Positions 41,152 to 52,729 of a stretch of 64,000 nt of DNA are shown one piece after another. The notes under the pieces were generated by a model. It was not told the DNA's origin. It did not search any database and saw only the letters and a list, made by a program, of their open reading frames with translations. This DNA is from Eledone cirrhosa. Lineage: Eukaryota. Both the position numbers and the translations under genes were made by a program. Positions within the stretch are counted from its first letter, which is position 1. Each line of letters starts with the position of its first letter. The stretch is from contig CAXHJY010000740.1 of the NCBI GenBank assembly GCA_964016885.1, positions 1 to 64,000 of the forward strand, written 5' to 3'.

Positions 41152-41344
41152 ATAGGAACCAGTAAGACCCCGACGGCTGAGCTCAAGCTGTTTCGACGGC
41201 TAATTCTGTCCAGAATTAGCCGTCGAAACGGCTTGAGCTCAGCCGTCGGGGTCTTACTGGTTCCTATTACCCACTCTACTACCTAAGTATTGAGTACTTT
41301 GGTGCGTTATGGTCCACCTGGTTCCTTACCACATTTCCTTCGTT
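41152..41344 (+). mobile_element. Fold-back element family H1, copy 1: 57-bp arms centred on hammerhead stem II, plus unique tail, inserted in (TA)n
   Basis: Arms 41152-41208 and 41211-41267 with one mismatch. The right arm reads TAGCCGTC-GAAA-CGGCT-tgagctc-AGCCG-TC-GGGG. Confidence 0.85.
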
Positions 41345-41354
41345 ATATATATAT

Positions 41355-41575
41355 ATATTGTTATACTTGGGGAGGCTCATATTTGTGTAATATTGCCAGA
41401 ATTAATAACAGAACACACTCACTGTTTGGTTGGTTTTCGCTTCTGTGTCTTTTATATCAGTAATCTAATTTATTCGGTCCTCAACGTTGCCATTGACTGA
41501 CCAACGGTAAAAAATAATACAGATACAATATTTGTTTCGACACACGATTTCATATCAAAAACCTCGCAAAACTAT
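41355..41575. mobile_element. (TA)n-anchored pLTR-like repeat, family H2
   Basis: 41355-41522 matches 53833-54009 inverted. 41525-41574 is the inverted copy of 42047-42096. Confidence 0.75.
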
Positions 41576-41580
41576 ATATA

Positions 41581-41718
41581 TGAAGACGGCATATATATGT
41601 GTTGGTATGTATATTAAATTTGATAGTTTGTATAATTTTGTATAATTTTGTACATAGAATTGGCATGCATACTCAACAGATCTAACACATATATGTCCTA
41701 GAAACGATCGTTAAATAA
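41581..41718 (+). ncRNA. 5'-clipped hammerhead motif with a very long stem-loop II
   Basis: (a)TGAAGA-cggcatatatatgtgttgg...ctaacacatatatgtccta-GAAA-CGATCG-TT, with palindromic stem III ACGATCGT. C3 and the 5' strand of stem I are replaced by (TA)n. Confidence 0.55.
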
Positions 41719-41782
41719 TGAACTTTTTTTGTTTAATATAAGGAACTGTTTCATTGTTTTATTCATTATTTTTTTAATATTT

Positions 41783-41819
<37 letters not shown>

Positions 41820-42046
41820 GAGAAGAAAGAAGAATACTGCGTGGTTTGCACATGGGTTACATATGATAAAATTAGTCCCTCGTCAGTGATTTGCCAACCA
41901 TCATTGGTATTTCATCGCATTAAAAATCATATACCTCAGGTTGGTGCGAGCAATAACTAAAAAAAGCTATTGGGACAAGTAAATCGCGTAAAGCGAGTGA
42001 GACAAGTAAACAACATAGAAGGATAAATATATATATATATATATAT

Positions 42047-42152
42047 TAGTTTTGCGAGGTTTTTGATATGAAATCGTGTGTCGAAACAGATATTGTTATA
42101 CTTGGGGAGGGTCATATTACAACAATAATACCCTCCCCAAGTATAACAATAT
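42047..42152 (+). mobile_element. Family H2 fragment with hammerhead 3' half and a 23-bp-arm hairpin
   Basis: gtgtc-GAAA-CAgatatTG-TT. atattgttatacttggggagggt pairs with accctccccaagtataacaatat. Confidence 0.65.
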
Positions 42153-42170
42153 ATATATAGATTCCATGTT

Positions 42171-42236
42171 ATTCTTTCTGACGACTGAAGACAGACATAA
42201 ATATATCTGTCTTCAAGAAACCACTGGTAAATGAAT
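42171..42236 (+). ncRNA. Type-I hammerhead ribozyme
   Basis: ATTCTTT-CTGACGA-cTGAAGACAGA..TCTGTCTTCAa-GAAA-CCAcTGG-TA-AATGAAT. All core nucleotides are present, and the predicted cut is after 42229. Confidence 0.85.
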
Positions 42237-42247
42237 TATCTTATGTT

Positions 42248-42320
<73 letters not shown>

Positions 42321-42599
42321 CGTGTGTGTGATTTATATATGATGTACATATGTGTGTGTGTGTGTGTGCACATGTGCTTGTATATATATATATATATATA
42401 TACACACACATATATAACGACACTTTCCACATGTATACACAAGCACCACTGCTGCTAATGTCTCTACTGTCACGAATAAAACAGATTTGTAAGCTATGAC
42501 CAGCTCCTCGTGGTAATGTAGTAACTTCACTTATGATTCACTTGTGTTTCCACGTCTGATAACCACATACGTCATCAATTGCTTCTCGTTAATATTGCT

Positions 42600-42620
42600 T
42601 TCATCTCTTCTCCACCACCA

Positions 42621-42653
<33 letters not shown>

Positions 42654-49472: not shown

Positions 49473-49509
49473 ACACGATCCTTTCTGGTTCAGATCTAAG
49501 TAACAATAG

Positions 49510-49600
49510 CGACAAGGATACAATACGTCACCGGAAATTAGAAATCGTGACCTTGCGATCGTGAGCCGAATACCTTAACCACTAATCTATGTACCTTCAC
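49510..49600 (-). mobile_element. tRNA-derived SINE head
   Basis: Minus strand tagtggttaaggtattcggctcacgatcgcaaggtcacg resembles the head at 36061. Confidence 0.6.
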
Positions 49601-50537
49601 ACACAACCCCTTTCGATATCAACCCGCCCAAAACTGGCTCTGGTCCTATAAAACAAAACAACTAATTTTGAAGGACTTCTATCTGAATCATAATCTGCCA
49701 ATATATAATAAATTCATATTAGTACATGTTAAGTTACTATCTTAGTATTGAAATAATTAGTAATTTTAGTAAATCCTTCAAAATCCTTCATTAATTAATT
49801 GAAATAGAGTGCACAGTTGTCTCCGGTATTCGCTGGAGAAACCGTGAATATTGAACGTGGTCCATAAAAATGCCTATAAACGTCGAAAATATAACGTAGA
49901 ATATAATTTTAAAAAAAGAGAGCGTCTTATGCGAAGGGGCGCCTTATGCGAAGGGGCGTCCAATAGGCCGGCAAATACAGTATATTGTTATTAATAATTT
50001 AGCGTTAAAAAATATATATTGCCTCGAAAAAAACCATTAAAAATCGCGGTAGATATTTATGATTCCCCGAATATGCAGTGCCAAAATTGAACTAAATGTC
50101 TTTGGTCTTAGATCTTCCAATGTCTTTGGTCATAGATCTTCCAATGTCTTCGATTATAGATCTTCACGATCCTTACTAGTCTGAATCTAAGCAACAATAG
50201 CGGCAACTTAACATTAACCTGTATTGAGCATCAACAATCTAATTGGAATTATTTGGTGAGGAAAAAAACAAAAAAACAAACAAAAAAACAAACATTATCA
50301 ATGACAAATATTATAATTGATAGCCTTGTGTCAAAAGTAGAAACAATTATTATTATTATTATTAATTTTGCAAATATGGGAGATAAATCTAGATACGATT
50401 CGATCTTTATTAGACCTTCTCAGCGAAGTCCTGACTACATCGTATTTTCCGAAATAATGACAAGAGAATTACTAAGTAGATGTAGAATATTACACACTAT
50501 TGGGCCTGGAATTGTGTGTTTACCATATGATTTCTAA

Positions 50538-50812
50538 ATGTTCACTGTATGGTTTACTGTATGGATACTATATGTTCACTGTATGGATACTATATGTTCA
50601 CTGTATAGTTTACTGTATGGATACTGTATGTTCACTGTATGGATACTATATGTTCACTGTATTGTTTACTGTATGGATACTATATGTTCACTGTATGGTT
50701 TACTGTATGGATACTATATGTTCACTGTATGGATACTATATGTTCACTGTATGGATACTATATGTTCACTGCATGGATACTATATATTTACTATATGGAT
50801 ACTATATGGTTT
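50538..50812. repeat. 22-bp minisatellite (TGTTCACTGTATGGATACTATA) with shorter subunits
   Basis: Directly visible. Confidence 0.92.
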
Positions 50813-51107
50813 ATTATAATTGTTCAACTGTTTTGTTTAACGTCCCCGAGCCAAACACTTGTGATGTTTGAAGGAGCTCCCGCTTCTTCTTCAATATGGG
50901 CGACGACCTTCAAAACCACATTCTCACTACGAACGCCATATCTGCCACCATCATCTCCCCGACGACGACCACCACCACCACAAGTACCCATCACCACGAC
51001 CACCACTACCAACACCACCAACACCACTACCACTACCACCATCACCACCACCATAACCAATGCCATAGTGATAAGCGACATCATCATGGTACCCATAGCT
51101 ATACAAG

Positions 51108-51217
51108 CTAGCTAGCGCTTCCAACATTGACATTACTGCCGCTGTTGAACCCAACTGATGACGTAGTTGATACTGCTGTGACGTCATTATCTACGGTTGA
51201 CAATGGAGAATCTTGTT
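51108..51217 (-). CDS. Candidate terminal coding exon of an unidentified host gene
   Basis: Pyrimidine-rich acceptor tttttcacgcctaccttttctaaaaatAG. The phase-1 frame reads (E)QDSPLSTVDNDVTAVSTTSSVGFNSGSNVNVGSAS*. AATAAA at 50815-50810. No homology recognised. Confidence 0.3.
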
Positions 51218-51394
51218 CTATTTTTAGAAAAGGTAGGCGTGAAAAATTGGTAATAAACAATTATTAGAAGTATTAGTATTCCTATTGTTTCAAATCTATA
51301 TCTTCCCACACAAAGATGGATGTGCTTCTAGTATCTATATACACATGGCACACACATGTGTAGAAGTAAAACTGATTGATTGATCTCCCTCTTT

Positions 51395-51447
<53 letters not shown>

Positions 51448-51449
<2 letters not shown>

Positions 51450-51632
51450 CGAAGGAAGTGTCGTAAGGAACCAGGTGGACCATAACGCACCAGAGTACTC
51501 GATACTTTGGGTAGTAGAGTGGGTAATAGGAAAAGGCTCAGGACCCCGACGGCAGATCTCAAGCTGTTTCGACGGATAGAAAAATAGCCGTCGAAACGGC
51601 TTGAGCTCTGCCGTCAGAGTCCTGAACCTTTT

Positions 51633-51637
<5 letters not shown>
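51448..51637 (-). mobile_element. Fold-back element family H1, copy 2, inside (TA)n
   Basis: Same tail as 41268-41344, inverted. Hairpin at 51526-51637. Confidence 0.85.
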
Positions 51638-51666
<29 letters not shown>

Positions 51667-51952
51667 CAGTCGATCGACTTTCGTTAAATCGGACCGAGGA
51701 AACAATGTTTCCGTTGGTCTTTCTAATTGCTAATACTCTCTATGAGTCGCAACTCCAGGTAGAAGGAGCATCCTGAAATAAAGGTGTCTTGCCCAAGGAC
51801 ACAACGCATCACCCGGTCCGGGAATCGAACTCACTTGCCACTCAGCCGCGCGCCTTCACCGTGTGTGTGTGTAGAAATATTCGTGAAAAAAAAGGAAAAA
51901 GGGAAACAGTTCTCTATCAGGGAAGAGAGCTGTTATATTATTTACGTTCAAG

Positions 51953-52141
51953 GGCGATGGGTTGGCAGTATCAGTAGGGCGTTGGACACCATGCTTCGCG
52001 ACAGAGAGAGTTATGGCCCTTTACGTTCTGAGTTTAAATCTCGTTACGGTAAGCTTTGCCTTTCGTCCTTACGAGGTCGATTTAATCGACTTTCTCCACC
52101 CTTCAAATTGCTAGCCTTGTGCCTATACTAGAAACAATTAT
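51953..52141 (+). mobile_element. Family-A-related SINE
   Basis: ttggcagtatcagtagggcg...ctgagtttaaatc...tagaaacaatt. Confidence 0.75.
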
Positions 52142-52552
52142 TTAGTTACGTTCATACACATAACAAGAGCGTTAACTATGGATTCAAGTTCCAATATTGA
52201 CCATATCTCCAGAATATAAGAGGGGGGTCAACATTTTAACCCGTCTTTAGGCGCTTATACGAATTTATACACACATACACATATGTATGTATGTAGGTGT
52301 GCGTGTGCGAGTGCGTGTGCGTGTGCGTGTGTGTGTGTGTGTGCAGGCACTCGATCTGCTAAAAACAGCACATAAATCATACCTAAGTAACAAGAGGAAG
52401 CACACGGTCATATCTCTGGGGTTAAAACGTTCGCTTGGTAGCCTCATCGTTTCAGGCTTGAGCCCTCTGCACGACCCCTTGGTCAAATAACTTAGCATCG
52501 ATTTGACCAATAACTTGTGAGCGCATGCAACCCCACTCAGTACACACACACA

Positions 52553-52729
52553 AAGCTGGACCATAACGCACCAGAGTACTCGATACTTAGGGTAGTAGGG
52601 TGGGTAATAGGAAAAGAGTCGGGACCCCGACGGCTGAGCTCCAGCCGTTTTGACAGCTAGATCCTCAGTTCGTATCTAGCTGTCGAAACGGCCGGAGCTC
52701 AGCCGTCGGGGTCCCGACTCTTTTCCTAT
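52553..52729 (-). mobile_element. Fold-back element family H1, copy 3
   Basis: Same tail. Hairpin at 52607-52729 with a different loop and different distal arm sequence. Confidence 0.85.

Follow-up and report, generated by a model that had tools for sequence, protein, structure and literature searches.

Short inverted copies of a Penelope-like element in Eledone cirrhosa and their probable origin by twin target-priming

Introduction

How do three short hairpins, each set in a (TA)n run and each carrying only half of a hammerhead ribozyme, come to lie in one stretch of Eledone cirrhosa DNA? The stretch analyzed here (the window) comprises 64,000 nucleotides, positions 1 to 64,000 of contig CAXHJY010000740.1 in assembly GCA_964016885.1, and the hairpins (copies 1 to 3) are the sole members of their family inside it. 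The initial annotation took them for truncated, inverted pseudo-long terminal repeats (pLTRs) of a hammerhead-bearing Penelope-like element (PLE), an attribution borne out by a parent with reverse transcriptase (RT) and GIY-YIG motifs. It also proposed that cDNA synthesis halts at the ribozyme core, after which the cDNA folds back on hammerhead stem II and self-primes its second strand. The element family was the right one; the mechanism was not. Genome-wide counts lead us instead to a reading that we consider probable, if well short of certain, in which both nicked strands of the (TA)n target would prime separate cDNAs at two fixed sites, A and B, probably on one RNA.

Inverted truncated pLTRs with a one-sided tail, pLTR hammerheads and TA targeting have already been described in PLEs, and the origin of the tandem and inverted insertions and of the one-sided tail is a named open problem (Craig et al. 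2021, PMC8557442). The more than 10,000 near-identical events left by one young family permit the rules of insertion to be measured.

Results

Copies 1 to 3 are self-complementary, as had been noted, and form long hairpin folds (-127, -102 and -125 kcal/mol, respectively); their distal arms vary from copy to copy and yet pair inside each copy, and a type I hammerhead is represented on the sense arm by its 3' half. The layout described as common to all three does not hold in full for copy 3, whose tail is truncated and ends in a (CA) run; copies 2 and 3 are both on the minus strand. The shared end of the inverted arms was correctly placed at the (TA)n run: every short arm stops at CC|TATA, and both ends of a copy meet (TA)n at TAT. 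No complete hammerhead core was found in the three copies, the 5' half being missing from each, and an Rfam search of the window returned no hammerhead. Across the 3.0-Gb genome, a 29-mer from the arm has 23,447 exact matches, far more than chance would give (its backwards control has 0), and one exact pattern retrieves 15,706 fold-backs, 13,928 with spacers of 0 to 30 nt and 1,778 with spacers of 31 to 61 nt. All such pattern counts are exact-match lower bounds covering some subfamilies only, and the subfamily labels are our own.

Unfolded copies were among the first loci examined; the frame beside one of them is an RT-like fragment, and its genomic relatives include tandems. The natural unit of the parent is 3,528 bp long (3,528 to 3,543 bp where units stand in tandem) and contains a 784-codon open frame, 715 amino acids from the first Met, in which RT and GIY-YIG share one open reading frame (ORF). 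Along this ORF we read the motifs RWR, DKT, YRDDG and CxCx5C, a C-terminal GIY-YIG-like core (VIY..YIG), CxxC and CxH. The set described for the Hydra clade of PLEs, which have a C-terminal endonuclease and insert into (TA)n (PMC8557442), appears here as RLRWR (RWK in most homologs), SDKT, CNCPDRSIC (the CxCx5C linker), CNLCSEE and N..CKH, the last two corresponding to the CxxC and CxH described around the conserved E and N. These motifs are kept in 15 aligned homologs (among at least 120 listed of 822), one of which is without the C-terminal part; with respect to the CCHH motif, whose absence inside the GIY-YIG core is a Hydra-clade trait, only single Cys residues are visible by eye near the GIY-YIG core. 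Pfam placed no family above its cutoff for the full ORF, the RT fragment or a nearby GIY-YIG-like frame, and the domain names used here accordingly rest on motifs. Features of endonuclease-bearing (EN+) PLEs are likewise present, namely the single RT and GIY-YIG ORF, tandem pLTR units, an inverted truncated copy and a tail at one end. Both ends of the copies lie in (TA)n at most loci inspected, within which target-site duplications are unreadable. The parent is a young PLE with Hydra-clade motifs.

The anatomy of the unit can be read directly when the A of T(T/C)AGT is counted as +1. The hammerhead core lies at -42, positions -33 to -28 form the stem II 5' strand, the TATA-like box TATTTAAA begins at -29 and the stem II 3' strand is at +11; the predicted ribozyme cut follows +41, sites A and B follow +58 and +138, respectively, and the Met codon is at +232. 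At the tandem junction, both the minimum free energy and the centroid structure are type I three-way hammerheads, with stems I to III around UUGAGAA, GAAA and UC, although the z-score of the fold is unremarkable (-0.2) and an Rfam search at this junction gave no hammerhead match. The parental core had been expected to read CUGANGA, and a parent search with the CTGANGA pattern gave 0 matches. That result fits the core actually present, which is UUGA(G/U)AA (the U3-A8 form) in most parents; the first core base is U in 59 of 62 long parents and C in the remaining 3. The U3-A8 core is a known variant of PLE hammerheads (Cervera and De la Pena 2014, PMC4209133).

Three other loci hold amplifications of this family. 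Head-to-tail arrays of 257- and 274-bp units, each spanning the start region to +254, occur at L006:1495-2155 and L009:212-1976; the L006 array begins at the presumed RNA start, lacks the ribozyme 5' half and resembles retrozyme-like tandems. At L154:9171-9999, an element of five units has a 55-bp piece of the ORF tandemly amplified at its 5' junction.

Where the copies fold is directly observable. Among 100 arms picked regardless of their 5' end from a genome-ordered list, 69 stop within a 14-nt window (about -6 to +8), 1 stops in the next ca. 33 nt upstream (the interval that holds the stem II 5' strand), 14 are longer and 16 are shorter. The axis thus marked is an initiator-like site within hammerhead loop II, 29 nt below TATTTAAA. 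From other PLEs, TATA and initiator-like motifs in the pLTRs are known, as is an internal promoter (PMC3846280, PMC2377424). The base before +1 is G 1,136 times and A 190 times (about 6:1), and it is G in 0 of 59 long parents. Reverse transcription of an RNA cap adds an untemplated G, and so the excess suggests a capped RNA 5' end at which the arms would stop. The fold axis goes with the promoter-like signals rather than with the ribozyme. Two other sources of these ends were considered and rejected. A 3' splice site at TTTCATT(T/C)AG does not account for the axis, since the arms usually retain the AG and there is no constant upstream exon; ribozyme cleavage does not account for the copy ends, which lie at +58 and +138, with the predicted cut after +41.

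Stem II itself was the axis originally proposed. In the parent, however, the stem II 5' strand sits 37 nt upstream of the 3' strand, and it is missing from the copies together with most of its loop; what looks like a stem is the 3' strand's own reverse complement. The arms do carry the hammerhead 3' half, as snap-back at stem II would have it, yet the junction that this predicts (inverted arm, then parental loop II) has 0 matches against the 15,706 fold-backs, and the untailed arm is the longer one about half of the time. In copies 2 and 3 themselves, it is the arm without a tail that extends further 5', the opposite of what a snap-back starting on the tailed arm would give.

A second (TA)n-targeted family, present in the flanks (L095, L105, L260, L267-L281 and other loci) and genome-wide, has a canonical CUGAUGA core with a 4-nt loop II, a TATA box, the shared tail motif GTATTGAGTAC and the same geometry of a short arm and a tailed arm, in at least 4,230 fold-backs. 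Here the fold axis falls 5' of the entire core, some 30 nt below TATAAATA. Spacers of 0 to 8 nt, which place the fold at stem II, number 105, and spacers of 9 to 39 nt number 4,125; the core is on one or both arms in 24 of 28 rows inspected, and the tail is on exactly one arm in all 28 (27 distinct). Pieces of a Hydra-like ORF lie near one long copy, though their link to that copy is unsupported. The 105 copies that fold at stem II are what the snap-back there would leave. With the other 4,125 of 4,230 folding upstream, mostly with the core on one or both arms, the ribozyme is not supported as the second-strand priming signal it was thought to be, and we regard stem II snap-back as scarcely credible.

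The two ends of the copies obey a simple rule, which is again a matter of direct count. Of 10,976 pairs of arm ends, 10,554 (96%) combine site A with a tail that normally ends at B, 107 are A with A and 315 have both ends past A. Among ten exceptions inspected (5 of each kind), 2 had mutated or interrupted tailed arms and 3 ended 1 to 6 nt past A. Site A also terminates solo copies, and in one copy it terminates a 10.5-kb arm of three units whose partner is a B arm of ca. 125 nt; where both arms of long inverted copies are visible (by eye, in BLAST matches), the short-ended arm is the longer in 6, the tailed arm in 4, and the two are equal in 2. The short end had been explained as a point of capture by (TA)n. 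Because the same end terminates solo and 10-kb copies, it acts rather as a priming site, and these data suggest that A and B both behave as priming sites, with the tail as the gap between them. At one locus (L258), the tailed arm is broken by (TA)18 precisely at site A, which raises the question of whether the TA runs are wholly preexisting target or are partly added at insertion.

The high copy number, hairpin shape and TA flanks could also describe a miniature inverted-repeat transposable element (MITE) with fixed inverted ends and homogenized arms. In place of symmetric terminal inverted repeats and a constant interior, though, we find asymmetric A and B ends and copy-specific centers; the sequence belongs to a parent that encodes RT, as its pLTR, and sizes run continuously up to 10 kb. 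Junctions vary widely and arms match inside a copy, so that the independent formation of each copy, as first supposed, stands, and the MITE reading retains next to no credence.

If A and B are priming sites, the question becomes whether the two arms are one cDNA folded back or two cDNAs joined. If a B-primed cDNA snaps back, the resulting tailed arm can be no shorter than its partner. Counted genome-wide at the junction of copy 1, the tailed arm is longer in 271 copies and the short arm in 314 (P = 0.08 against 1:1), a symmetry that is observed directly and argues for two cDNAs. The two arms are also of one kind: in the subfamily tested, 476 pairs are of the same subfamily and 6 (one of them a nested artifact) are mixed, which fits a single RNA template. 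In 532 copies the arms barely meet, a complete short arm being paired with a tailed arm that begins at about +41 or later; of 30 such copies fetched, 27 are clean A-to-B insertions, and 16 (by eye) have 3 nt or fewer common to both arms. The mirror class, in which the tailed arm is long and the A arm very short, numbers 274, although the windows used for the two classes differ. Finally, the sequence at the presumed RNA start bears on the joint. In the subfamily that starts AGTAC, 152 of ca. 476 fold-backs (32%) have the junction that corresponds to the start, as opposed to 216 of ca. 3,384 (6%) in the subfamily that starts AGTCC. We infer that the self-complementary GTAC raises its junction about fivefold, an effect that the annealing of two ends predicts.

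One alternative that covers much of this is a single cDNA, primed from B or beyond, that snaps back at the RNA 5' end, after which the endonuclease of the element trims the palindrome as it integrates, one arm at A and the other at B. It accounts for the same-subfamily arms and the A-with-B rule and, if either arm can be trimmed, for the symmetry and the non-overlapping class as well. It also has precedents, in that palindromes at inverted junctions have been put down to self-priming (PMC3846280) and the tail to resolution by the endonuclease (PMC8557442), and snap-back of full-length R2 cDNA has been reported in cells (PMC11371274). An intramolecular hairpin, however, gains no clear benefit from a self-complementary loop, and yet the GTAC junction is some five times commoner; palindromes with no spacer are frequent (among 102 scored junctions, 18 have spacer 0 and 41 overlap); and in vitro, tail boundaries are RT start sites primed by nicks on both target strands (Frangieh et al. 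2024, PMC11167929). We therefore consider the trimmed palindrome unlikely.

Alternatively, the symmetry might be secondary, with B-primed snap-back at the RNA 5' end and capture at A being followed by loop flips and arm deletions. Palindromes are unstable, which counts in favor of later change, as does the lean toward longer tailed arms in our fetched loci (50 against 35). Exact copies of the subfamily with intact ORFs nonetheless show the two orientations about equally (28/100 and 27/100 among the matches listed, counted by hand). Furthermore, site A terminates solo copies and the 10.5-kb arm, many non-overlapping copies share 3 nt or fewer, too short a match to flip, and the mirror class, subject to the difference in windows, is not the commoner one. 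This explanation seems to us quite improbable.

Two cDNAs need not imply one RNA. Each strand might be primed on a separate RNA by an asymmetric dimer, both RNAs usually coming from one source copy; strand displacement would then be unnecessary, the few mixed pairs would be expected, and a dimer has been predicted for the anole protein (PMC11167929). Against this, mixed pairs make up ca. 1% (6, against 476), where by our own estimate, which assumes coexpression, a random draw would give hundreds, and tailed arms that start right at site A fit a collision on a single RNA. We judge the separate-RNA version very improbable.

Twin priming on one RNA calls for two ends at priming sites and for independent cDNAs, and the symmetry, the non-overlapping class and the GTAC effect bear on it indirectly. 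Several points weigh against it. Among 102 junctions at fetched loci, the tailed arm is longer in 50, the short arm in 35, and 17 are equal; 30 loci in this sample came from a query with the tailed arm, and it leans to tailed arms (it was drawn from 115 oriented fold-backs, 13 unscorable ones from other subfamilies or with decayed junctions being dropped and 7 same-type pairs set aside). The GTAC comparison sets two subfamilies side by side, with slightly different anchors for numerator and denominator. Same-subfamily arms are predicted equally by snap-back, some of which may occur, given the 105 second-family copies folding at stem II, and flips or arm loss in palindromes after insertion could mimic both symmetry and non-overlap. 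The RNA start and its cap are inferred from DNA alone, and B-primed synthesis through the A cDNA needs a putative strand displacement. From the published side, the anole enzyme in vitro shows no strand difference in its use of start sites, and these sites lack homology to the target (PMC11167929); without a strand preference there, a strict pairing of A with B is left unexplained by that work.

Discussion

In the route that we favor, transcription would start within hammerhead loop II, at the A of T(T/C)AGT. A monomer RNA would then carry only the ribozyme 3' half, and a full ribozyme would arise solely by read-through of a tandem. The endonuclease would nick both (TA)n strands, and each 3' end would prime at UAU, one at site A and the other at site B, the UAU pairing with the ATA at the target 3' end and the element protein initiating internally. 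Both cDNAs would go on to the RNA 5' end or be truncated. With priming in the first pLTR, they would leave the RNA at its capped end once 60 and 140 nt had been copied, yielding the 190-bp stubs; priming in a downstream pLTR would yield the long inverted copies. The B-primed enzyme may displace the A cDNA or halt near site A. The free cDNA 3' ends would then be trimmed and joined through 0 to 4 nt of complementarity, often with inserted bases, and complex junctions with inserted bases are indeed seen among the fold-backs. Given priming at A and B, the tail would simply be the A-to-B distance, and whatever is copied twice would make up the inverted repeat.

Biochemical work on a related protein bears on several of these steps. 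With purified Poseidon PLE protein from the anole, both target strands are nicked and extended, and synthesis begins at two internal sites on the RNA, which flank the tail; cleavage by the ribozyme is not required, and the protein is predicted to form a dimer (PMC11167929). The present family resembles it in having two presumed internal start sites around the tail and differs in that both sites carry TAT matching (TA)n and are used one per side. In the part consulted, the anole study draws no link to inverted insertions.

In other respects, too, the element is a mixture of the familiar and the unusual. As in Hydra-clade PLEs, RT is followed by GIY-YIG in a single ORF, RW(R/K), DKT, CxCx5C, CxxC and CxH are present, the pLTR holds a hammerhead, and (TA)n is the target; those elements are generally shorter than 3 kb, whereas this unit has 3.5 kb with a 1.1-kb 3' untranslated region (PMC8557442). 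It stands apart further in its U3-A8 core, in a 37-nt loop II that holds the presumed promoter, and in its tens of thousands of copies, mostly inverted stubs of ca. 190 bp. Head-to-head copies, a tail at one end, palindromes at junctions and TATA- and initiator-like pLTR motifs are all typical of PLE insertions, in which the tail is 30 to 40 nt long rather than the 80 nt found here; where the PLE papers invoke self-priming or endonuclease resolution, our counts favor two target-primed cDNAs (PMC8557442, PMC3846280). The ribozyme, like those of PLEs, has a type I fold, a covariant U3-A8 core, a bulge in helix II and dual motifs on opposite strands, and it departs from minimal metazoan hammerheads in its longer helix III (6 bp) and in being split by the presumed start site (PMC4209133).

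A further parallel to the proposed route is the 5' inversion of LINE-1, which arises by twin priming when both target strands prime on one RNA and which leaves a microhomology joint. The second site at which LINE-1 primes varies, and its two cDNAs are not known to overlap; in the present family the two sites are fixed, and overlap of the cDNAs would usually extend to the RNA start, which gives a palindrome. In the literature searched (most subscription journals and supplements fell outside its scope), the pairing of A with B, an axis at the RNA start and twin priming by PLEs were not found.

The rules that emerge (a short and a tailed end in 96%, a junction at the presumed RNA start, no preference in arm length, and a junction boosted by a self-complementary end) yield exact predictions for the existing in vitro PLE system. 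If true, programmed twin priming would account at once for three features, namely the inversion of the pLTR, the presence of a tail on one side only and the great number of short stubs. A promoter inside the hammerhead would keep monomer RNAs uncleavable, the ribozyme being armed only by read-through of a tandem. More tentatively, and with our own judgment falling slightly on the side of doubt, twin priming may be the normal, programmed route of PLEs, every insertion being two cDNAs head to head with no conventional second-strand priming.

Other features of the window

The three copies are mapped in Table 1 along with other repeats of the window. In copy 1, the tailed and short arms have a single G in common, and the 5' half of the hammerhead is missing because it is located upstream of +1.

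Table 1. Parts of the three hairpin copies and other repeats in the window (numbering with a plus sign refers to the full-length unit)
Feature	Position	Strand	Description
(TA)n target, left flank of copy 1	41131..41154		
Copy 1, short arm	41155..41208	-	Inverted; about +5 to site A (+58)
Copy 1, tailed arm	41208..41343	+	+2, just inside the presumed RNA start, to site B (+138)
Copy 1, hammerhead 3' half (type I)	41217..41252	+	Stem II 3' strand, GAAA, stem III, GUC (41245-41247), stem I 3' strand
Copy 1, tail	41265..41343	+	About 80 nt, site A to site B, on a single arm only
(TA)n target, right flank of copy 1	41344..41358		
Copy 2, tailed arm	51449..51578	-	Different subfamily; about +11 to site B
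Copy 2, short arm	51579..51634	+	To site A, then (TA)n; slightly further 5' than tailed arm
Copy 3, tailed arm	52557..52664	-	Third subfamily; tail stops before site B
Copy 3, short arm	52667..52726	+	+1 (AGTTC) to site A, then (TA)n; 5' side exceeds tailed arm
Inverted sequence flanking copy 3	52520..52760		catgcaaccccactcagta and its complement
Perfect inverted repeat	53333..53428		Ca. 30 bp, centered on a (TA)n run
TA-flanked inverted element	57686..58113		Third of its kind; 152-nt arms, 97%; CTGATGA..GAAA
Satellite	3338..33371		30 kb; 50-bp unit, about 600 copies, recurring higher-order variants
Minisatellite	36117..36600		45-bp unit
Minisatellite	47826..49472		24-bp unit
Minisatellite	58819..60290		47-bp unit

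The inverted sequence on either side of copy 3 suggests that this copy was inserted into the center of another small palindromic element. The perfect inverted repeat nearby possibly represents two element ends that face each other across a common TA target. In the TA-flanked inverted element further downstream, which bears a similar tail motif, both arms stop at the same site, and its relatives occur at many loci.

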